A stretch of 17,402 bases of DNA from a virus. Taxonomy: Duplodnaviria; Heunggongvirae; Uroviricota; Caudoviricetes. Each line of letters begins with the position of its first letter. Position 1 is the stretch's first letter. Below the pieces are notes generated by a model. The model was not told the DNA's origin. It did not search any database and saw only the letters and a list, made by a program, of their open reading frames with translations. The stretch is taken from the IMG/VR virus record IMGVR_UViG_2617270979_000005, positions 1 to 17,402 of that record; one strand, written 5' to 3'. This document shows, one piece after another, positions 7,702 to 17,402 of the stretch. A program made the translations under genes and the position numbers.

Positions 7702-8388
7702 TCACTCCTTCTCTTCTTTTCCGTAGTGGAGTTGGCCAATTTTGATAAGAGGGCGTCCCTGAGATTTGCGGTGTAGATTGGTATCGCGCAGAGAATACAC
7801 ACAGCCACAATATTCCTGCTGATAGAATTTTTCGCGCTTGCTGATTTCAATCATACGGGACGAGCCGCCCTGCTTGCGCCAGTTATAATCCCAGTACACC
7901 ATACCCGGATAATGCGCAACAGCTCGCCGCCCACACTCGTTAACCTGCTGCATATTTTTCCAGCGTGAAATGCCCAGTGAACTGCTGATCACACTGAAAC
8001 CATTTTCAGCAGCGTACAACGCTGTCCGCTCAAAACGCATGTCAAAACACATGGTACAACGGATCCCCCTCTCAGGCTCCCATTCCATTCCTTTGGCACG
8101 TTCAAACCAGTTGTCGGTGTCGTAATCAGCATCGATAAACGGCACGCCGTGTTGTTCAGCAAAGCGAATATTTTCATCCTTACGAATTAAATACTCTTTC
8201 TGAGGATGAATGTTCGGGTTGTAGAAAAAGATGGTGTAGTCGATTCCCGAGGCCTGAAGCGCCTCCATCACTTCACCGGAACATGGAGCACAGCAAGAGT
8301 GCAGTAGTAGTTTGTTTGCCCCGTTTGGGAGTTCCAATTTAGGCCGTTTGAAATCAGCAATAGTCATAAATATTTTTATTGGGGTCAT
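7702..8388 (-). CDS. queH: QueH-like protein (DUF208, epoxyqueuosine reductase family)
   Basis: 228-aa ORF (ATG 8388; alternative ATG 8367; neither has a strong SD); family-defining motifs '[11 protein letters not shown]', '[10 protein letters not shown]' and 'YCGCVYS'. Family call from memory of DUF208. Confidence 0.75.
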
Positions 8389-8541
8389 GAAAATAGCACA
8401 GAGTGTAGCATCAGAGCAGGGCTATCGGGAATATATGTCTAAATCTGGTAATATCTGGTTTTGACGCAAAGCGGACAACCACGCTGGCTCTACCCTGCGC
8501 CATGAAAATGTCAATTCACATCTGAACTAATGCTCTTTAAT

Positions 8542-8937
8542 CTAGTAACGTCTAAAATACCTAACATTTCCTTGATAAAATGTCAGTACACGCTGCATAG
8601 CTTCGCTCTTCCGGCACTCGCGACAGATTATATTCAGGCGCCTGTCGTAGCGGCGTATTTCTCCGTCTGGTAACTTTCGAATCAGTGTCGGGTCAGCAGC
8701 CTTCTCCGGTGTCTTACGCCATACGCGATACGCCTGCTCTGATGGAAATACCCCGCAATCACAGAGCCAGACATCACCACTGGCCGCAAGCGCACCAGAT
8801 AAACGACGAATAGCGGTCTTACTGACACCCGTTTTATCTGCCAGTTGTCGAAAAGTTTCTCGTCCGCTCAGGCGCACGAATTCCACAATGCGCGCCTTCA
8901 CTTCTTCCCGCTCTTCTGGTGTAAATACTTTTGCCAT
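8542..8937 (-). CDS. Hypothetical nin-region protein (131 aa) with HTH-like segment and Cys cluster
   Basis: ATG at 8937 preceded by GGAGG (5-nt spacer); 'RQLADKTGVSKTAIRRL' HTH-like; CDC…CREC cysteines. The track start at 8952 is a TTG. Confidence 0.6.
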   Translation of the reverse strand: MAKVFTPEEREEVKARIVEFVRLSGRETFRQLADKTGVSKTAIRRLSGALAASGDVWLCDCGVFPSEQAYRVWRKTPEKAADPTLIRKLPDGEIRRYDRRLNIICRECRKSEAMQRVLTFYQGNVRYFRRY

Positions 8938-8952
8938 AAGCGCCTCCGGCAA

Positions 8953-9723
8953 TCACTTTTCCGACACAATACGACCGGATGAATCGACAATCTGTCGAAC
9001 AATATCCCGGTGCTTGTACAGCTCCCGCAGCGCGGCGCAGACTCGCTCCCACTTCTGAACCTGACCTTTTGCCCGGCGCAGCTCGCGGTTAGCCACATGC
9101 AGCGATGGTAAAATCAGACCATCCGGATGTTTTCTGGTGAACGACGGCTGTGACTGCACTGTGACCGCCACACTTTCAGTTTTTATTTCTTCCTGTGTTT
9201 CCGCTTCCCGGACAGGTAACGCAATACCTGCTGGCTGAGGAATGGCTTTACCATCCGTTTCCGCTACGGATGCAGCTTCCGGCTCTGCCGGTAAATCAGC
9301 GCCCGGTATGCAGTAACGAAATTTACCGTTCTGATTTACGCGTGCCAGGCGCCCCGTTGCTGTTACGACCGCCAACGTGGAAGCAACCTTGCGAATGCTA
9401 ACACCGAACTTATCCGCCAGTTCCTCACACGTTTTAGCCCCATCCTGACAGATAAACTCAATCATCATGTCCGCGGTAACTTTTTGTTCGACCTCCCCGG
9501 TCAGCATATCCTGTGCTTCAGATTTTACTGGCCGCTCTTCGGTTACCCGGGATTCACCTTCGCCAGCCAGAAACCAGGTGTGACCAGTTTTATCAACGAC
9601 GCCATTTCTTTTGAGTTCCCACAGCTCGTTGACAGCCTCTTCACGACTGATTCCAAGGCGAGCTGCCACCACATGTGAAGAGGCTTTTTTCAGTGCTTTC
9701 AGTGCGTCAAATACGGTTTCCAT
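8953..9723 (-). CDS. Hypothetical nin-region protein (256 aa), acidic, possibly DUF1627-like
   Basis: ATG at 9723 preceded by GGAGG (8-nt spacer); N-terminal winged-helix-like segment 'AARLGISREEAVNELWELKRNG'. DUF1627 assignment is a weak recollection. Confidence 0.55.
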   Translation of the reverse strand: METVFDALKALKKASSHVVAARLGISREEAVNELWELKRNGVVDKTGHTWFLAGEGESRVTEERPVKSEAQDMLTGEVEQKVTADMMIEFICQDGAKTCEELADKFGVSIRKVASTLAVVTATGRLARVNQNGKFRYCIPGADLPAEPEAASVAETDGKAIPQPAGIALPVREAETQEEIKTESVAVTVQSQPSFTRKHPDGLILPSLHVANRELRRAKGQVQKWERVCAALRELYKHRDIVRQIVDSSGRIVSEK

Positions 9724-9756
9724 TAATATTTCCTCCGACAAAATCGTTTCTCAGAT

Positions 9757-10419
9757 TCAAATAAAACCAGCTGCCTTCCGGCGTTCGTATTCCTGTTTCA
9801 GCCGTTCAATTGGCGTTGGCCCTTGCGGGTGTTTCGCCCCTTCCAGTTGTCGTCGCACTGGCGGAACACTCATCCCGTTACCAACATGCTTTGCCCATTT
9901 CGTCAGTTGCCGTTCCGCAAGTCGTTTTAACTCACCCTGCGTCATCTGGCGCTCAATCCCTCTGGTACGCATTTCGAGGCAGATGTGGTACAGCACAGGC
10001 TGTGGCCACGGGTATTTATCACTCCCGTCGTATCGCCAGGATTCATTGCGCCAGCGCCGGTACTCTTCCATCACTGCATCCACCGTAAGACCAAATGGAT
10101 TTGCCCCACTCTCCGAAATCAGTGCAACAAACTCAGCCAGGTCCGGGGGCCACGTTTCACCCGCCCGGCAGCGGTCCATGCACTGACGGCAGACCAGCCG
10201 GATTTGCTGTTCAGTCATCGCGCCAATCTGGGCAATCCAGAGCTTCGAAGGTGCGGCCCCGTTCTTCTGTGTCCAGCGGTTCGAATACACCTCCCCCATA
10301 AGCTCCCACAGCTTCCAGGCCGTTTCCGTTGCTGATAAATCCGTTGTCACGTTCCCACTGTTCGCGTGCTGCCCGGATTTCCTGAACTGCCCGTGATGCC
10401 GTGCCACCTGATGCTGCAT
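9757..10419 (-). CDS. Replication protein P-like (lambda P family helicase loader); start uncertain
   Basis: 220-aa ORF; C-terminal half aligns by eye with remembered lambda P (…YPWPQ…/…YPWKS…, …TEQQ…/…TMEQV…); ATG 10419 has an AGGGGG RBS but overlaps the O-like gene by 209 nt; alternative ATGs at 10299 and 10218. Confidence 0.65.
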   Translation of the reverse strand: MQHQVARHHGQFRKSGQHANSGNVTTDLSATETAWKLWELMGEVYSNRWTQKNGAAPSKLWIAQIGAMTEQQIRLVCRQCMDRCRAGETWPPDLAEFVALISESGANPFGLTVDAVMEEYRRWRNESWRYDGSDKYPWPQPVLYHICLEMRTRGIERQMTQGELKRLAERQLTKWAKHVGNGMSVPPVRRQLEGAKHPQGPTPIERLKQEYERRKAAGFI

Positions 10420-11227
10420 GGCTTACCCCCTTGCTGACTGGTTTTACCTGTGCCCTGACGTGCTGCACGTGGCGGGCAAATTTCTGCTCCCACTGAACCT
10501 GCGTGAAAACCTTCCCCTCCGCCATCCAGTAATCCCGGAATGCGGCAAGCTCTGCAGGTGTAAATTCCGGCTCAGGCAGAGCCATACCCCACACTGCTGC
10601 CCGTTGTCGAAAATCCGACGACAGCTGCCAGACAGTAGTCATCGAAAATTTCCCGATCGGTTCGCTCAGGCCGTCCAGGTATTCAGGTTCGGCTGTCTGC
10701 AACGGCGCACCATGCGACTCACCGGTTGGAGCACTCTCGCGCATGCGCGCGTTATGTGTGGGGTTTAATTCTGTATCTGTATCTTTATCTGTCGTGACTT
10801 GTCGTGACATGTGCGTGACATTTCGTGACGCGCCGTGACAATCGCCATTTTGTTCCCGCTTTCTTTCCCTCTCACGCTGCGCCCTCTTGCGCTCTGCCGG
10901 AGATTTTGCGGTTTGCGAAATATTGCCGTTGTCCTCTTTAAGCACCTGGCGTTTTTCCCATCCAGTGATTAAATCACCATCAAGTACCCGCCCCTGCATC
11001 GTCTGCAAAATTGAATCAATTACCTCTTCTGTCACGTCGAGCGCACTTGCCAAATCTTCTGTCGTGACATCAATGTGACCTCGCGTGACATTTCGTGACG
11101 CGCTCACCAGGAGGTGGATATACACTGCCATCACTGTTGCAATTGGCTGCCCTGACACCCTGGCAATTGTTCGCCACTTAGGGTCATTTGGCATGTCATG
11201 CCATAATCTGAGCCAGGCGTTAGCCAT
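10211..11227 (-). CDS. Replication initiator (O-like, iteron-binding replisome organiser)
   Basis: 338-aa ORF from ATG 11227 (GAGGTG RBS; track start 11233 is GTG); contains two arrays of CGTGAC iterons; sits immediately upstream of the P-like gene as in lambda O-P. Confidence 0.7.
   Translation of the reverse strand: MANAWLRLWHDMPNDPKWRTIARVSGQPIATVMAVYIHLLVSASRNVTRGHIDVTTEDLASALDVTEEVIDSILQTMQGRVLDGDLITGWEKRQVLKEDNGNISQTAKSPAERKRAQRERERKREQNGDCHGASRNVTHMSRQVTTDKDTDTELNPTHNARMRESAPTGESHGAPLQTAEPEYLDGLSEPIGKFSMTTVWQLSSDFRQRAAVWGMALPEPEFTPAELAAFRDYWMAEGKVFTQVQWEQKFARHVQHVRAQVKPVSKGVSHAASGGTASRAVQEIRAAREQWERDNGFISNGNGLEAVGAYGGGVFEPLDTEERGRTFEALDCPDWRDD
10791..10840. repeat. Iteron array A: five CGTGAC-core repeats at 10-11 bp spacing (candidate origin), inside the O-like gene
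   Basis: CGTGAC at 10793, 10803, 10814, 10824, 10834; preceded by tatct repeats (10770-10790). Confidence 0.65.
11061..11103. repeat. Iteron array B: four (C/T)GTGAC-core repeats at 10-11 bp spacing, near the 5' end of the O-like gene
   Basis: CGTGAC at 11063, 11084, 11094 and TGTGAC at 11074; the 21-mer GCGTGACATTTCGTGACGCGC (11083-11103) is an exact copy of 10813-10833. Confidence 0.6.
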
Positions 11228-11298
11228 ACTCACCTCTTCTGATACCGAATCTTTTTACTCACGAGTTGCCGGAAGCGATTCGATATGGCTATTGTCAG

Positions 11299-11724
11299 TC
11301 AATGTACTGCCACAGCATTTCCTGCCGGGCCACCACGGTTCATCTGATTGAAACCGGCGATTGCCACTGCGACAAAATCATCAGCGTCTCTCACCAGTCG
11401 CTCCCGCGTCTCCACCAGCTCCCGAAAATAAGCTGAACTGTGGCTGCGCATTCTGGCCACCAGCAAAGGTGGCATTGCCTTTTCGATCGCTGGTAACAAC
11501 GCCTGAATTTTTTCAACTGCATCAGGGGTGTCTTTCTCTACCCAGCGGAAAATTTTCTGGGTATTACGGGCCAGGGCTTCCGGATGGCTGTCGTCGTACA
11601 GTTCCGGGAACGTCATCCCCAGTTCGAAATAAGTCCGGGCTATTTCAGCTGCTGGAACTTTCTCACCGTCTGGATACGCCCAGGCATTCATTGCCATGCG
11701 GATGTGTTCATGCTTGATTTTCAT
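11299..11724 (-). CDS. YdaT-like protein (Rac-type, proposed cII-like regulator/toxin)
   Basis: 141-aa ORF; ATG 11724 with GGGGGTGA RBS; N-terminus 'MKIKHEHI' resembles remembered Rac YdaT; directly downstream of the Cro-like gene. Confidence 0.65.
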   Translation of the reverse strand: MKIKHEHIRMAMNAWAYPDGEKVPAAEIARTYFELGMTFPELYDDSHPEALARNTQKIFRWVEKDTPDAVEKIQALLPAIEKAMPPLLVARMRSHSSAYFRELVETRERLVRDADDFVAVAIAGFNQMNRGGPAGNAVAVH

Positions 11725-11983
11725 GAATCACCCCCGCCTCTGGTTGTGTGTTAGCCTGATACTCGACAGGTAAGCCGTCGGTTGGGTTGGGATAAGTACT
11801 GCCATCAATCTCGTGCGGAGTTACTATCCAGCCTGTTGCTTCGCACCAGCGTAAAATTTTTTTCCCCGTAAGTTTCGCCCGTCCGGTAATGACATGGCTT
11901 ACCATCCCTTGGGTTACCCCAACAATTTCAGCAAAATGCTTCTGAGTTATACCGGAATGATGCAAATATTCTCCAAGATTCAT
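11708..11983 (-). CDS. Cro-like HTH protein (YdaS family)
   Basis: 91-aa ORF; ATG 11983 with GAGGTGA RBS; HTH 'ITQKHFAEIVGVTQGMVSHVITG'; divergent from the repressor gene. Confidence 0.7.
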   Translation of the reverse strand: MNLGEYLHHSGITQKHFAEIVGVTQGMVSHVITGRAKLTGKKILRWCEATGWIVTPHEIDGSTYPNPTDGLPVEYQANTQPEAGVIHENQA

Positions 11984-12090
11984 TGTTCACCTCATGTGAT
12001 GTCATCACGATCATTAATAGCATTGTTATTTTTAAAAGTAAATAGCATCACTATTTCAAAGAGATTAATAATCTTATTAGAATTGAAGGT
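11984..12090. promoter_or_regulatory. Divergent immunity control region with operator palindromes
   Basis: Perfect 13-bp palindrome GTGATG-T-CATCAC (11996-12008); two imperfect copies of AATAGCA-N-TGCTATT (12016-12030, 12041-12055); AT-rich -10/-35-like hexamers on both strands (tentative). Confidence 0.55.
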
Positions 12091-12591
12091 ATGAAAAGAA
12101 AATCCCTGTCAGAGATCGACCTGCAAGCCGCCCAGAGACTGAAAGAAATCTGGACGGCGAAAAAAAATCAACTAGGGTTAACCCAAGAGCGTGCGGCAGA
12201 AATTCTGGGATTTTCGACACAGGGAGCTGTAAGCCATTATCTAAATGGTCAGACACCTTTAAATCTTGAGGCTGTTATCAAGTTCGCAGGGTTGCTGCAA
12301 GTTCCTCCCGAGTCAATCAGACCAGATATGGCCGAGTTGTTACAAATTGTAAGGATGTATCCCCAAGAATCTGGGGAGGACAATGTTGTCACTATATCTG
12401 CAGATATGGAACAATCGGAAAACGAACTTCCGTTTAATATAGACCCCATGGAGCGGGATTTGCTCCAGACGTTCAGGGCTTTCCCCAAAGAAGATAAAGA
12501 GAAAATGCTTAAGGAAATGAAGGAGAAAAAAGAATCAATTGAAGAAATCGTTGCGCGATGGCTAGCTGCGCAAAAGGGTCGTCGCGCCTAA
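12091..12591 (+). CDS. Prophage repressor, XRE-family HTH (RacR/DicA-like, no S24 peptidase domain)
   Basis: 166-aa ORF; HTH 'LGLTQERAAEILGFSTQGAVSHYLNG'; divergent from the Cro-like gene; 5 of 10 Arg codons are AGA/AGG and 2 Ile codons are ATA. Confidence 0.8.
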   Translation: MKRKSLSEIDLQAAQRLKEIWTAKKNQLGLTQERAAEILGFSTQGAVSHYLNGQTPLNLEAVIKFAGLLQVPPESIRPDMAELLQIVRMYPQESGEDNVVTISADMEQSENELPFNIDPMERDLLQTFRAFPKEDKEKMLKEMKEKKESIEEIVARWLAAQKGRRA

Positions 12592-12608
12592 TCTGAGGAG
12601 GTAAAAAC

Positions 12609-12800
12609 ATGAGTACAGCCCTTTCCCCGATAATTTCTGAATTTGAAACAGTCGAACAAGAAAACAGCTATAACGAATGGTTGCGAACCAAAGTGGCAGC
12701 AAGCCTCTCAGATCCCCGTCCTGCAATTCCACATGACGAAGTAATGGCTGAAATGGAAAACCTTATTGCTCAATTAGCTGCAACGAACAGGAGTGAGTAA
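12609..12800 (+). CDS. Type II antitoxin (ParD/RHH-like) paired with the downstream ParE toxin
   Basis: 63-aa ORF; GAGGAGG RBS at 12594-12600; stop overlaps the toxin start (TAATG); family assignment by partner and size only. Confidence 0.65.
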   Translation: MSTALSPIISEFETVEQENSYNEWLRTKVAASLSDPRPAIPHDEVMAEMENLIAQLAATNRSE

Positions 12801-13090
12801 TGCTGCCCATTTTATGGCTACCTTCTGCACGTGATGATTTACGTCAGATCGTAGCCTATATTGCTAAGGAAAACCCTCCCGCTGCACGTAGACTAAAAAT
12901 ACGCATTGAAACATCAGTTTTGTCACTTACTGAACACCCTTATCTGTACCCACCGAGCGAAAGAGTTCCAAGTCTTCGTGAGATAGTGACTCATCCTAAC
13001 TACATAATACTTTACCGAGTAACAGCATCTAACATCGAGATCGTAAATGTAGTTCACTCACGAAGACAGTATCCAAACAAAACCTGTTAA
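12800..13090 (+). CDS. ParE/RelE-superfamily toxin
   Basis: 96-aa ORF; ParE-like pattern 'LWLPSARDDLRQIVAYIAKENPPAARRL … ILYRV … IEIVNVVHSRRQ'; translationally coupled to the antitoxin. Confidence 0.8.
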   Translation: MLPILWLPSARDDLRQIVAYIAKENPPAARRLKIRIETSVLSLTEHPYLYPPSERVPSLREIVTHPNYIILYRVTASNIEIVNVVHSRRQYPNKTC

Positions 13091-13103
13091 TCCTTCCTGT
13101 CAA

Positions 13104-13128
13104 CAACCACCTTCGGGTGGTTTTTTTC
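13104..13128 (+). terminator. Rho-independent terminator after the toxin gene
   Basis: AACCACC-TTCG-GGTGGTT hairpin followed by TTTTTTT (13121-13127). Confidence 0.7.
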
Positions 13129-13138
13129 TTGCCACGAT

Positions 13139-13153
13139 AATAGCACTGCTATT
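13139..13153. promoter_or_regulatory. Operator: perfect palindrome AATAGCA-C-TGCTATT upstream of the ydfA-dicB operon
   Basis: Perfect 7-1-7 inverted repeat; same motif as the two imperfect copies in the immunity control region. Confidence 0.55.
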
Positions 13154-13359
13154 TACATAATTAAATAGTAGTGGTATTGTTCATTCATCAACCCACCCCG
13201 CCCCACAGAACGCCAGGCAATACTTCGAGTTACCCGGCAGTGGTCAGGGGTTAAGTAGCCAGCCCGAGGCGTATGAACATGACGGCGGGAACACTTTATA
13301 TAACAGCGCAGCAGTTTTTTAGTTCCGCTACCCCGGCGTTAAGGGGAAATGAGGTCAGC

Positions 13360-13515
13360 ATGGATACTATCGATCTTGGCAACAATGAATCTCTGGTGTA
13401 CGGCGTGTTTCCCAACCAGGACGGCACATTCACCGCGATGACGTATACCAAAAGCAAAACGTTTAAAACCGAAAATGGTGCCCGTCGCTGGCTGGAAAGA
13501 AACTCAGGTGAGTGA
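13360..13515 (+). CDS. ydfA: YdfA/YdaF-like small protein (51 aa)
   Basis: ATG 13360 preceded by AAGGGGAAATGAGG; size and position match the first gene of the Qin dicB operon (from memory). Confidence 0.65.
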   Translation: MDTIDLGNNESLVYGVFPNQDGTFTAMTYTKSKTFKTENGARRWLERNSGE

Positions 13516-13516
13516 T

Positions 13517-13645
13517 ATGGATTTCGACACAATCATGGAAAAGGCTTACGAAGAATACTTCGAAGGCCTTGCCGAAGGCGAAGAAGCTCTCAGCTTCAGT
13601 GAGTTTAAACAGGCGCTTTCCAGCTCGGCAAAATCTAACGGCTGA
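13517..13645 (+). CDS. ydfB: YdfB-like small protein (42 aa), absent from the ORF track
   Basis: Hand-translated: ATG 13517 (AGGTGA RBS) to TGA 13643-13645 gives MDFDTIMEKAYEEYFEGLAEGEEALSFSEFKQALSSSAKSNG; size and position match ydfB. Confidence 0.6.
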   Translation: MDFDTIMEKAYEEYFEGLAEGEEALSFSEFKQALSSSAKSNG

Positions 13646-13674
13646 TAAGCGAAACAGCACCGCGAGGAATCAGT

Positions 13675-13893
13675 ATGCAGAAACGAGAACCCGTCATCAT
13701 CGCGCCAGACTATACCGATGATGAACTTTATGAGTGGATGCACCAGAAAATTAATGCAGCGCAGGATCTGAAATGGGCCAATGAAGCCAGGGCTAAGCAG
13801 GCTGAAAATCTGTCCGCTCTGGAGCAGGATATCACTAATCTGGAAAAAGCAGCGGCATTAAGCATTGCCAGAATGATTACATACCCGCGTTAA
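13675..13893 (+). CDS. ydfC: YdfC-like protein (72 aa)
   Basis: ATG 13675 with GAGGAA RBS; size and position match ydfC. Confidence 0.65.
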   Translation: MQKREPVIIAPDYTDDELYEWMHQKINAAQDLKWANEARAKQAENLSALEQDITNLEKAAALSIARMITYPR

Positions 13894-13915
13894 TAGCTAA
13901 CCAACGAGGCTAATA

Positions 13916-14290
13916 ATGGAATTTAAAGATTTACCAATGCAATTCCAGGAAATGGCAGCGAATATAGTTCGTTCCCAACTGGCGACTCTTGACCTGAGTA
14001 CCGTAGAAAAAGAAACCATCGACAATATATCCGGTAACGTACGCCGAGCCTTTATCGGGCTGTACGAAGAGAAGCAGCTCTCTGATAACCAGGATTTACA
14101 TGAAAAATACTTTCTGGAATTAATGGACATCATTAATAAAGGATTTGGCTTGTTAATGAAAAAGAAAGGGATTCGAATAGCTCCCCTTGAAAATCATTTT
14201 ACAGCAAGCAGTATTAATTCCTGTGATTTAAAGCATCACACATCCGATGGGAAAGTTGAATCAAACAACAAAATATCGATTAATCATTAA
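13916..14290 (+). CDS. Hypothetical protein (124 aa), AT-rich insertion between ydfC and DicF
   Basis: ATG 13916 with GAGG RBS (6-nt spacer); 4 of 11 Ile codons are ATA; no recognisable family. Confidence 0.6.
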   Translation: MEFKDLPMQFQEMAANIVRSQLATLDLSTVEKETIDNISGNVRRAFIGLYEEKQLSDNQDLHEKYFLELMDIINKGFGLLMKKKGIRIAPLENHFTASSINSCDLKHHTSDGKVESNNKISINH

Positions 14291-14596
14291 TTTATTCACA
14301 GGTGAGGTAGAGTGCGTGCGCCGGACACGGATAAGAATCCGGCACTGACAGTTTACTGAAAAGGATATATCCCTGAAAAGTCAGGGCATAACACGAAAGC
14401 GCCCGGAGAAGTTAGTCTCTCTGTATAGGTCGTCGTTAAATTTAATTCGATCGTGCGCTTCCGGTTGTGGCAATCCGCGAAATGGCGCGGCGGTAAGTAT
14501 GGCGGGGTTATTCCTTCCCCCGCTGAGGACACCGGGTTGTCAGGTTGACCATACGCTTAAGTGACAACCCCGCTGGCAACGCCCTCTGTTATCAAT

Positions 14597-14649
14597 TTTC
14601 TGGTGACGTTTGGCGGTATCAGTTTTACTCCGTGACTGCTCTGCCGCCC
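14597..14649 (+). ncRNA. dicF: DicF small regulatory RNA
   Basis: 53-nt stretch TTTCTGGTGACGTTTGGCGGTATCAGTTTTACTCCGTGACTGCTCTGCCGCCC followed by TTTTT matches the remembered DicF sequence; located between ydfC-like and dicB as in Qin. Confidence 0.85.
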
Positions 14650-14823
14650 TTTTTAAAGTGAATTTTGTGATGTGGTGAATGCGGCTGAGCGCACGCGGAA
14701 CAGTTAAAACCAAAAACAGTGTTATGGGTGGATTCTCTGTATCCGGCGTTAATTGTTAACTGGTTAACGTCACCTGGAGGCACCAGGCACCGCATCACAA
14801 AATTCATTGTTGAGGACGCGATA

Positions 14824-15012
14824 ATGGAAACGTTATTACCAAACGTTAATACGTCTGAAGGTTGTTTTGATATTGGTGTTCTGCTCAGTAACCGGGAGTT
14901 TACGGAAGATGCCATTAAGATGAGAAAATATGAACCTTATCTTCTCAATGATAATTCCATACTTTCCAGAATTGCCCTTCTTGAACTTGGTATTATCGGA
15001 GAACAGCAGTGA
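14824..15012 (+). CDS. dicB: DicB cell-division inhibitor homolog
   Basis: 62-aa ORF 'METLLPNVNTSEGCFDIGV…'; N-terminus matches remembered DicB (MKTLLPNVNTSEGCFEIGV…), C-terminus diverges; GAGGA RBS. Confidence 0.8.
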   Translation: METLLPNVNTSEGCFDIGVLLSNREFTEDAIKMRKYEPYLLNDNSILSRIALLELGIIGEQQ

Positions 15013-15197
15013 CTTCAGCATTTGCACTGGTGATGACCGTTTTTCTTATAACGGGTGAGCCACAAAATGTGATTACCGGAATTTATGACAGTAAGTCATC
15101 CTGCATTCAGGTAAGGGACGAACAAAAAATCCCCGGTGAATGCCTCCCGTTAAAAAAAGTATCGCTGAACCTGAATAACGAAATACCGGCTGGATAA
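15009..15197 (+). CDS. ydfD: YdfD-like small protein
   Basis: 62-aa ORF with GTG start overlapping the dicB stop; 'MTSAFALVMTVFLITGEPQNV…'; position matches ydfD. Confidence 0.7.
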   Translation: MTSAFALVMTVFLITGEPQNVITGIYDSKSSCIQVRDEQKIPGECLPLKKVSLNLNNEIPAG

Positions 15198-15291
15198 CCC
15201 GCCAGCCATATTAACGCCATACCAACGGATTAAAAATGCCACAATGGCAGGGATTCGTTCACCCTGAAATCTGTAATGAGGTTAAAACAAA

Positions 15292-17402
15292 ATGAGTAAA
15301 GTCTTTATTTGCGCCGCCATTCCGGACGAACAGGCAATAAAGGAAGAAGGTGCGTCGCTGTAGCCACTGCCATTGAAGCCGGTGATGAACGTCGCGCCCG
15401 CGCAAAATTTCACTGGCAATTCCTGGAACATTATCCGGCTGCTCAGGACTGCGCTTATAAATTTCTTGTCTGCGAGGATAAACCCGGTATACCCCGCCCT
15501 GCCCTCGATTCCTGGGATGCTGAATATATGCAGGAAAACCGCTGGGATGAGGAGTCTGCTTCCTTTGTCCCGGTTGAGACTGAATCAGATCCGATGAACG
15601 TCACTTTTGACAAGCTGGCCCCTGAAGTACAGAACGCTGTCATGGTTAAGTTCGACACATGTGAAAACATCACCGTTGATATGGTGATTAGCGCACAGGA
15701 ATTGTTGCAGGAAGACATGGCAACATTCGACGGCCATATCGTTGAAGCGTTGATGAAAATGCCAGAAGTTAACGCTATGTATCCGGAGCTTAAGCTGCAT
15801 GCCATCGGGTGGGTTAAGCATAAATGTAAGCCTGGTGCCAAATGGCCCGAAATTCAGGCAGAGATGCGCATCTGGAAAAAACGTCGCGAAGGTGAACGCA
15901 AGGAAACCGGAAAATACACGTCTGTTGTTGATCTCGCCCGCGCCAGAGCCAATCAACAGAACACTGAAAATTCAACAGGAAAAATCAGCCCGGTCATTGC
16001 TGCCATTCATCGCGAATACAAGCAGACATGGAAAACACTGGATGACGAACTGGCCTACGCTCTCTGGCCTGGTGATGTGGATGCCGGAAACATTGACGGC
16101 AGCATCCATCGCTGGGCAAAAAATGAAGTTATCGACAACGACCGCGAAGACTGGAAGCGTATCTCGGCATCAATGCGCAAACAGCCTGATGCCCTTCGCT
16201 ACGACCGCCAGACTATTTTTGGCCTTGTCCGTGAACGTCCGATCGACATTCACAAAGACCCTGTGGCACTGAACAAATACATTACTGAATACCTGACTAC
16301 AAAGGGCGTGTTTGAAGATGAAGGAAGAAATCAGAGCGCAACTGATACTCTCTCGTCGCCAGTACCAGAAACTGATGCAGTGGAAACGGCAATTCCGGAC
16401 AACGAAAAAACCGAATGCAAAGTGGAAGTCGAACCATCTGTAGAGCGTGAGGGGCCGTTCTACTTCCTCTTCACCGACAAGGATGGCGAAAAATACGGTC
16501 GCGCAAACAAACTTTCTGGTCTGGAAAAAGCACTGGCCTTGGGAGCTACGGAAATCACAAAAGAGGAATACTTCGCACGTAAAAACGGCACGTACTCAGG
16601 TTCACAACAAAATACTGGTGCATCTGACACGACCGCACAACCAGAGCCGGTAAAAGTTACAGCTGACGAAGTAAACAAAATTATGCAGGCAGCCAATATC
16701 AGCCAGCCTGACGCCGATAAGTTGCTTGCTGCCTCTCGCGGAGAATTTGTTGCAGGGATTAGCGACCAGAATGATCCGAAATGGGTTAAGGGGATCCAGA
16801 CCCGCGATTCTGTAAACCAGAACCAGCATGAATCGGAACGGAACTACCAAAAAGCGGAACAAAACAGCCCAAATGCGTTACAAAACGAGCCAGAAACGAA
16901 ACAGCCTGAACCAGTGGCGCAACAGGAAGTGGAAAAAGTCTGCACCGCCTGCGGTCAAAGCGGTGGCGGCAACTGCCCTGATTGTGGCGCGGTGATGGGT
17001 GACGCAACATACCAGGAAACATTCGATGAAGAGAATCAGGTTGAAGTTCAGGAAAATGATCCGAAGGAAATGGAAGGCGCTGAACATCCACACAAGGAGA
17101 ATGCTGGTAGCGCTCAGGATCACGCCAGCGATAGTGAAACTGGCGAGACGGCAGATCCCTTAATTACGATGAACGGTCATCACGTTATCACATCCACCAG
17201 CAGGACGTGTGACCATCTAATGATCGACCTTGAAACCATGGGAAAAAATCCTGATGCCCCGATTATCTCAATAGGTGCAATATTTTTCGATCCGCAAACC
17301 GGAGATATGGGACCGGAATTTAGTAAGACTATCGATCTGGAAACTGCTGGCGGGGTCATTGATCGGGACACCATTAAATGGTGGCTTAAGCAATCACGCG
17401 AA
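15292..17402 (+). pseudogene. RecE/exonuclease VIII-like gene (YdfE-like N-terminus), 3'-truncated by the window, with an apparent frameshift near codon 20
   Basis: ATG 15292 (GAGG RBS) opens a 23-codon frame ending at TAG 15361-15363; the adjacent frame (positions divisible by 3) is open from 15300 to the window end (hand-translated, about 700 codons, no stop). That frame contains a CxxC-x9-CxxC zinc ribbon (16941-16985) and ends in a DnaQ-like motif 'MIDLETMGKNPDAPIISIGAIFFD'. A single-base indel in 15300-15360 would fuse the frames. Confidence 0.6.

Follow-up and report, generated by a model that had tools for sequence, protein, structure and literature searches.

Why should a temperate phage of Escherichia coli carry an enzyme for a reaction that its host can already perform? 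The question is raised by a stretch of viral DNA of 17,402 nucleotides (nt), positions 1 to 17,402 of IMG/VR record IMGVR_UViG_2617270979_000005 and called here the window, which holds on its minus strand a gene of the QueH family. QueH and the host enzyme QueG (YjeS) serve the same last step of queuosine (Q) synthesis, the conversion of epoxyqueuosine (oQ) to Q in tRNA, with unrelated folds and cofactors (cobalamin and [4Fe-4S] in the case of QueG). The analysis described here favors the view that the prophage gene encodes a functional, cobalamin-independent epoxyqueuosine reductase, captured from a bacterial chromosome, that backs up host QueG in lysogens; we give this reading a probability of roughly 0.7.

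The prophage gene is an intact member of the QueH family

The open reading frame (ORF) at 7702..8388 runs for 228 codons on the minus strand without interruption, and it contains the DUF208 cysteine motifs, including YCGCVYS, that an earlier reading of the window from its letters alone (the sequence-only reading) had picked out. The search against the Pfam DUF208/QueH model proposed in that reading gave a clear result: PF02677 (QueH, formerly DUF208) matches the ORF with E=1.1e-65 and 221.5 bits (cutoff 23.5) over profile positions 1-174 of 175, and is the sole Pfam-A family found. NCBIfam returned no model for the ORF, which reflects the content of that library and is not evidence against QueH membership.

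The extent first given to the gene, 7702-8388, is probably too long. An alignment of seven copies places in the Rac-type prophage copy a stop codon that closes the reading frame of the upstream ATG; homology from backbone to backbone extends no farther than about 50 nt upstream of the second ATG (seven E. coli prophage and phage copies with their flanks); and the RefSeq start, set by the Prokaryotic Genome Annotation Pipeline (PGAP), is the second ATG, giving 221 aa (WP_000150294.1). These observations point to 7702..8367 as the most likely coding sequence, with the second ATG (Met8) probably the true start and the upstream in-frame ATG at 8388 unused. The features of the gene and its leader are as follows.

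7702..8367, minus strand: queH coding sequence, 221 aa, start placed by inference at Met8, the second ATG
8368..8416, minus strand: conserved 5' leader that travels with queH across backbones, delimited by the onset of homology between Qin-type and Rac-type copies
8410..8402, minus strand: extended -10-like element TGCTACACT, ending 35 nt upstream of the ATG
8398..8390, minus strand: second extended -10-like element TGCTATTTT, in the leader sequence

Conservation was judged against 64 representatives of the family that share 35-74% identity with the query; they were taken from the results of an exhaustive HMMER search through a set of 1.84 billion cluster representatives. Every invariant or nearly invariant column of this set and of Thermotoga maritima QueH is kept in the prophage protein, namely (in the numbering of the 228-codon ORF) C32, C33, C36, N59, E65, Y66, R69, E106, R110, C111, C114, R118, K144, Q191, C194, G195, C196 and S199, and the QueH cysteine motifs CCxPC, CxxC and YCGC are all present. 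Cys36 aligns with Asp13 of T. maritima QueH, the residue mutated in PDB entry 9dco; the column is Cys in 61 of the 64 representatives, so that the prophage protein has the majority state at the position where it differs from the Thermotoga enzyme. The cofactors of QueH are presumably a [4Fe-4S] cluster and a mononuclear iron, with metal ligands that we assign from conservation.

The fold agrees with the family assignment. The T. maritima crystal structure 7lc5 aligns over residues 27-203 (E=8e-22), and an AlphaFold2 model of the queH product was obtained with a predicted local distance difference test score (pLDDT) of 78.7 and a predicted template-modeling score (pTM) of 0.80. When this model was compared with the PDB by Foldseek, the top five matches were all T. 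maritima QueH (probability 1.0, target-normalized TM 0.87-0.88), with a root-mean-square deviation (rmsd) of 3.7 A for 9deu and of 1.9-2.3 A for the other four; TM was 0.87 and rmsd 2.1 A for 7lc7/7lc5, and the next matches, TtuA and other adenine-nucleotide alpha-hydrolase folds, reached TM values of 0.5 or less. Family (IPR003828/PF02677), fold and invariant residues are thus those of T. maritima QueH (7LC5, 7LC7, 9DEU), and the reaction is presumably the same, oQ34 to Q34 on tRNAs with GUN anticodons. A genuine, intact and full-length QueH-family gene in the window is confirmed, and its family membership, catalytic residues and fold are directly supported.

Distribution in E. coli and its phages

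A survey of 5426 complete E. coli genomes found the 687-bp queH stretch in 995 (18%), usually as a single copy, with at least 80% of queH present in 985 of the 995. Syntenic prophages that lack queH hold other cargo at the same place, and the earlier description of the gene as accessory prophage cargo is thereby upheld. The statement that E. coli already has QueG proved right without exception: chromosomal queG is present in 5426/5426 genomes and hence accompanies every queH copy. QueG is thus core and QueH accessory, and because queG is universal, queH is always the second epoxyqueuosine reductase of its strain. K-12 has only the QueG of its chromosomal locus, and in the collection scanned no QueH match came from the genome that represents the species E. 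coli. Carriers include clinical isolates of the sequence type 131 (ST131) kind and some O157:H7 strains.

Two types of lambdoid prophage carry the gene, a Qin-like type (with DicB/DicC, ydfT/ydfU, rem and hokD) and a Rac-like type (with racR, ydaS/T/U/V, kilR and sieB), and in both queH lies directly after the DUF977 (Ren-like) gene that closes the replication module. A cultured temperate phage, Escherichia phage HannyBb (PP925841), has queH at 93.5% nucleotide identity as CDS0046 (L002 8001-8687), annotated hypothetical. It is the only cultured phage with queH in a tblastn search of 50,697 phage records; the remaining matches there, which are short unannotated metagenomic "Bacteriophage sp." contigs or oversized "phage" records with probable bacterial content, were not used. 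In IMG/VR at least 189 viral contigs encode a queH relative, and the 80 loci examined, on the best 80 of these contigs, all encode the identical protein.

At the annotation level the gene is already known. PGAP names the E. coli copies "epoxyqueuosine reductase QueH", RefSeq carries this name, and the identical protein occurs under it on at least 1000 contigs of a large protein collection. The PHROGs family phrog_3217, labeled "unknown function", matches QueH with E=1.7e-138; its profile has nothing before residue 34, which may mean that its members were called with truncated N termini, and both this family and the HannyBb gene could be annotated QueH. The literature searched contained no description of a prophage- or phage-borne QueH, and a widespread and selected prophage queH with a putative promoter, carried as a cargo gene, is likewise not described there. 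A survey of 7-deazaguanine systems in viruses stated that no virus analyzed encoded QueA, QueG or QueH (PMC6884629), from which it follows that phage-borne QueH was unrecognized in that field in 2019.

A captured chromosomal gene with its own leader

Outside Escherichia and Shigella, the nearest relatives share 75-92% identity and bear the name QueH; they come from many Enterobacterales and from other Proteobacteria. Those at 80-92%, from Enterobacter, Scandinavium, Kluyvera, Erwinia, Providencia, Photorhabdus and Serratia, are encoded in non-phage neighborhoods: queH lies between purL and glrK/glrR/glnB/hmp/glyA in Erwinia, between tmcA and purC (with other genes intervening) in Providencia, next to benE in Photorhabdus, and amid dehydrogenase, DeoR-regulator, glycosidase and methyltransferase genes in Scandinavium and Enterobacter (88-92% identity). 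Lambdoid markers are absent at 79/80 species-representative loci, the exception being an E. albertii copy that is 100% identical. The chromosomal contexts, the high identity and the near absence of lambdoid markers together directly support a chromosomal origin, and they argue that prophage queH is a captured enterobacterial gene and not a divergent phage-specific paralog. QueH elsewhere resides on the core chromosome, whereas the prophage copy resides on temperate lambdoid phages and, in E. coli, always alongside QueG.

Identity to more distant genera is also high, at 75-82% of amino acids against Pseudomonas, Sphingomonas, Stenotrophomonas, Neisseriaceae and rhizobial genomes (L119-L172), values that point to extreme constraint or else to frequent horizontal transfer. 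A 77% match on a contig labeled "Bacillus subtilis SK7B5" looks like contamination or transfer.

The capture may have included a promoter. The leader element TGCTACACT fits the extended -10 consensus TGnTAnnnT, with a predicted transcription start near 8395, and in Scandinavium, Kluyvera, Enterobacter, Symbiopectobacterium and Erwinia the chromosomal queH genes are likewise preceded by TGCTACAAT or TGCTACACT. In those five genera TGCTAcAnT is kept at an equal distance upstream while the flanking bases diverge. Furthermore, TGnTAnnnT occurs within 90 nt upstream of 21/78 chromosomal orthologs versus 3/78 control windows. No -35 element was found upstream of queH. The conservation and spacing of the element suggest that it acts as a native promoter captured together with the gene.

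Selection on the prophage copies was estimated from pairwise ratios of nonsynonymous to synonymous substitution (dN/dS; Nei-Gojobori method) in a set that spans Qin-type and Rac-type backbones and one cultured phage. The values, 0.040-0.061 with dS up to about 0.46, directly support purifying selection, and the ORF is intact in 7/7 aligned E. coli prophage and phage copies and in 80/80 viral-contig loci. So low a ratio at so high a dS indicates that queH has long been part of the lambdoid gene pool and that purifying selection on it there has been strong.

A probable back-up for QueG when cobalamin is scarce

E. coli has no de novo synthesis of cobalamin (vitamin B12). The last step of Q synthesis in this species, the QueG reaction, requires a cobamide, as stated in a passage of PMC4646009 that cites Frey et al. 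1988, and QueH is described as the cobamide-independent alternative (PMC6461909). Taken together, these properties imply that a prophage QueH would sustain Q maturation where QueG would lack its cofactor. The gene would have been captured as a self-contained "moron", consisting of the ORF and a native leader of about 50 nt with an extended -10 promoter; in the lysogen its product would reduce oQ34 to Q34 on host tRNA-Asp, -Asn, -His and -Tyr, duplicating the reaction of host QueG, and the prophage enzyme would allow Q maturation to go to completion even where B12 is scarce. The conjectural parts of this model are that the enzyme is active on E. coli tRNA, that the lysogen expresses it from a promoter belonging to the gene itself, and that B12 independence is the benefit selected for.

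There are parallels for such an arrangement. Staphylococcus aureus has both QueG and QueH, and differences in their expression have been attributed to cofactor availability (PMC13443448). MetE/MetH and the B12-independent and B12-dependent ribonucleotide reductases follow a like logic, in which a B12-independent back-up is present in the same genome (PMC6461909); unlike in those pairs, the queH back-up is supplied by a prophage, varies among strains and is horizontally mobile. The resemblance to lambdoid morons such as bor, lom and the prophage tRNA genes ileZ-argN-argO lies in an accessory position between conserved modules and, putatively, in a promoter of its own. Among syntenic prophages queH is indeed present or absent at a module boundary, as expected of a moron; it differs from the classic examples in that no terminator was found and in that the cargo is a tRNA-modification enzyme.

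Several observations weigh against this model. Expression of prophage queH in the lysogen and a resulting change in the oQ/Q ratio are predictions. A sigma-70 scan, which requires both hexamers, called no promoter upstream of queH, no obvious Shine-Dalgarno sequence precedes the ATG, and a terminator scan found no terminator after the gene. The gene also lies inside the early-right operon, and it may for that reason be transcribed mainly after induction. To our knowledge no clear phenotype distinguishes oQ from Q in E. coli. Deletion of queG left growth unchanged in one tested setting (PMC11841063). Given the lack of a clear phenotype and the unchanged growth, the benefit of queH is unproven.

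Nearly all queuosine physiology has been worked out on laboratory K-12. About one fifth of sequenced E. coli strains carry a second, B12-independent epoxyqueuosine reductase on a prophage, and this fifth is potentially B12-independent for queuosine maturation. If the enzyme is active, the classic accumulation of oQ without cobalamin would fail in the strains that carry queH, and strain differences in Q status, in codon-biased translation and in the supply of queuine to the animal host could be determined by prophages. The conclusion published in PMC6884629, that QueA, QueG and QueH are encoded by no virus, would then need qualifying.

A cargo hotspot and the possibility of phage-host conflict

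The best surviving alternative, itself unlikely, is that prophage QueH serves phage-host conflict, tuning translation or the vulnerability of tRNA at induction, during superinfection or under attack by anticodon nucleases, and so acts as a defense or counter-defense accessory. The tRNAs cut by colicin E5 are exactly the four that contain Q, and Q reportedly protects tRNA from ribonuclease cleavage, according to a work among the references of PMC13185646. A further argument for this alternative comes from the position of queH at the edge of a slot that, across prophages, holds R-M (restriction-modification), Kiwa, Rosmer, ParDE and hok/sok modules. The slot has the following borders.

8542..8952, minus strand: DUF977 / Ren-like gene (Pfam DUF977, E=1.8e-38; PHROG 142), last gene of the replication module
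4010..5056, minus strand: DUF968 (HNH-like) nin-region gene (Pfam DUF968, E=1.4e-76), downstream border of the cargo interval

The DUF977 gene is the upstream border of the slot and a constant neighbor in all prophage contexts examined. A survey of the slot anchored on DUF968 gave these contents between queH and DUF968 at the 80 viral-contig loci.

32/80: hokD without an extra cassette
21/80: R-M pair
6/80: extra lipoprotein gene
6/80: Rosmer (RmrT/RmrA), in two variants
2/80: ParE/ParD pair
several of 80: insertion sequence (IS) elements

The variable cargo segments were located as follows.

L012: 5153-6792
L088: 9226-10982
L044: 9225-10959
L014: 9579-10204
L020: 9203-9595
L175: 4041-4814
L011: 6037-6375

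In strain W2-5 a Kiwa (KwaA/KwaB) pair separates queH from hokD, cargo between DUF977 and DUF968 also includes a DUF1971 gene, and where syntenic prophages lack queH, the DUF977-hokD interval is occupied by an alpha/beta-hydrolase gene or by small hypothetical genes. Qin/Rac-like prophages thus have a cargo and defense hotspot between DUF977 and DUF968, with queH as alternative cargo at its edge.

Evidence from another host also speaks for a role in conflict: a 2026 preprint reported that phage infection of Shewanella specifically induces queG and shifts oQ to Q, and linked Q to phage resistance and biofilm formation (10.64898/2026.03.05.709803). Enterohemorrhagic E. coli (EHEC) changes its Q levels in response to host signals, and its virulence genes show a codon bias (PMC13185646). 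Against the idea, queH is constant while the defense cassettes vary, and the prophage protein is nearly identical to housekeeping enzymes. The slot neighbors in other prophages match KwaA/KwaB and RmrT/RmrA in PADLOC-DB, whereas QueH is without a PADLOC model, no family there matching it at E<=1e-3. Codon usage is equally unhelpful to it: U-ending (NAU) codons make up a fraction of 0.51-0.55 of the Asp, Asn, His and Tyr codons of prophage genes versus 0.54 in a K-12 chromosomal segment, a comparison that carries no signal of Q-dependent translation. With no NAU excess in prophage genes, codon usage therefore gives no support for boosted phage translation. An enrichment of phage genes in these Q-decoded codons was considered and rejected, the foreign R-M genes (5507-7517, fraction 0.79) being the only ones biased.

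On balance, a part for prophage QueH in phage-host conflict or in the translation of virulence genes seems rather improbable. We also think it doubtful that phages control the cofactor-gated last step of Q synthesis by means of a QueH whose autonomous promoter fixes the oQ/Q state of the host independently of B12 supply. If such a role were real, decoding of Asp, Asn, His and Tyr codons would be reprogrammed, or the susceptibility of the corresponding tRNAs to anticodon nucleases changed, with possible effects on lysogen fitness, on virulence-gene translation in EHEC and extraintestinal pathogenic E. coli (ExPEC) carriers, or on the outcome of superinfection. QueH would then be the first tRNA-modification enzyme of the Q branch with a role in phage takeover of the host or linked to defense.

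It is very unlikely that queH is a neutral, hitch-hiking remnant without current function in E. coli. Such a view draws on redundancy with the universal queG and on the defective look of many carrier prophages, with IS1 and other IS insertions close by; what argues against neutrality is a dN/dS of about 0.05, an ORF intact across copies, the retention of every catalytic residue, and the spread of the queH cassette onto different prophage backbones.

The restriction-modification neighbor is incidental

The sequence-only reading had placed queH directly upstream of an R-M pair in an AT-rich block, and had left open whether the enzyme alters host tRNA Q status or acts on DNA together with that pair. 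The relevant features are these.

5436..7529, minus strand: type II R-M cassette, with boundaries from the alignment to the JE86-ST05 locus (L001)
6399-7517, minus strand: C5-cytosine methyltransferase (Pfam DNA_methylase, E=4e-54)
5507-6385, minus strand: NgoMIV-family endonuclease (Pfam NgoMIV_restric, E=1e-126)
7530..7699, minus strand: remnant of a hok/sok type I toxin-antitoxin system (leader and sok region), between queH and the methylase

The R-M pair is indeed the neighbor of queH, but the two are not contiguous, being separated by a 178-nt spacer that is the remnant hok/sok leader. Rfam RF01794 (sok) matches at 7454-7634 with 61 bits (gathering score 59), the spacer is collinear with the queH-hokD spacer of the JE86-ST05 prophage, and the hok/sok leader stretch is found in 3923 E. 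coli genomes, mostly without queH. As for the AT-rich block, the description holds for the R-M pair (GC 0.40-0.46) and does not extend to queH itself (0.46-0.48).

Relative to JE86-ST05, where queH is 100% identical, the cassette at 5436-7529 stands in place of a 287-bp segment that holds the mok/hok ORF (hokD). A hairpin with a T-run at 5434-5418, just past the insertion, is terminator-like and belongs to the shared backbone. By this alignment the cassette is a recent replacement of the mok/hok ORF, one addiction (post-segregational killing) module swapped for another, and it may now use the hok transcription signals. The NAU bias of the R-M genes fits a recent AT-rich foreign origin and is probably a compositional effect, even though the codons concerned are those read by Q-tRNAs.

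The pair occurs in 60/5426 genomes, with 59/60 copies at least 99% identical, and the queH-methylase junction is found in 57/995 queH-positive genomes (about 6%). With these counts (queH 995, R-M pair 60, junction 57), the proposal that queH is an R-M accessory was rejected. The survey of neighborhoods that the sequence-only reading had suggested thus went against the association that it had raised, the link being incidental and the slot contents varying among prophages. Because the junction is so infrequent, the slot variable and the mok/hok ORF replaced, the adjacency is uninformative about the function of queH, whose independence from the R-M pair is directly supported here. What looks like a "QueH + R-M" module is a chance product of the cargo hotspot, and the case guards against over-reading of gene adjacency in prophages.

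A DNA-modification system would be expected to bring further genes. The sequence-only reading had seen no DpdA, QueC, QueD or QueE partner, and the wider search bears it out: DpdA or other genes like tRNA-guanine transglycosylase (TGT), FolE, QueC, QueD and QueE were not found by Pfam scans of the named and larger ORFs of the window, and the annotations of the JE86-ST05 prophage, integrase to terminase, and of the early region of HannyBb list none of them. The Pfam families of those window ORFs are limited to phage replication, nin, regulatory, toxin-antitoxin, R-M and methylase functions. Phage DpdA clusters (FolE/QueD/QueE/QueC, with or without QueF or Gat-QueC) belong to the same 7-deazaguanine/queuosine pathway family as queH; they need a DNA transglycosylase and preQ0 genes, whereas queH belongs to the tRNA-specific branch and has none of these alongside. 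A role in DNA modification was rejected on this ground, there being no transglycosylase or preQ0-pathway gene in the window or in the carrier regions examined.

That QueH acts with the adjacent R-M pair or otherwise on DNA, for example in maturing a 7-deazaguanine modification, is accordingly highly improbable: the two loci are physically adjacent in the window and phages do use 7-deazaguanine enzymes for DNA modification (PMC6884629), but the junction is confined to 57 of the 995 queH-positive genomes, the cassette recently replaced hok, the neighboring methylase is an ordinary C5-cytosine enzyme, and deoxy-queuosine was undetected in all phage DNA tested in PMC6884629. Of the two functions left open by the sequence-only reading, the effect on tRNA Q status is the best supported, and the action on DNA with the R-M pair falls with the rarity of the junction and the missing partner genes.

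Other features of the window

The window is itself a lambdoid prophage of the kind described above. Its minus strand carries lambda-P-like and DnaT-like replication genes, DUF1627, DUF977, queH, the R-M pair, DUF968, RusA, antiterminator Q, an N6-methylase and tRNA genes. On the plus strand of the other arm, at 14598-14649, the prophage has a DicF antisense small RNA (Rfam RF00039, 76.7 bits), by which it can be recognized as Qin/Kim-like. Also on the plus strand, at 12091-13090, come in order a helix-turn-helix regulator of 166 aa, a PaaA2-family antitoxin of 63 aa and a ParE toxin of 96 aa; the trio resembles PaaR2-PaaA2-ParE2 of O157:H7 prophages and occupies the site expected for a CI-type repressor.

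At window 1 to about 770 and 860-1140, an IS1 element (InsA/InsB-like ORFs) adjoins the prophage tRNA cluster. JE86-ST05 has the trio tRNA-Ile / tRNA-Arg / tRNA-Arg, the middle member of which (about 968-1044) is scrambled in the window and drew no ARAGORN or Rfam call, and a tRNA with a CAT anticodon, called Met in the window, is annotated tRNA-Ile in RefSeq. The second methylase of the prophage, an orphan N6/N4 DNA methyltransferase (PF01555) at 1181-2230 on the minus strand, lies between antiterminator Q upstream and the tRNAs downstream, as in phages of the Shiga toxin (Stx) type.

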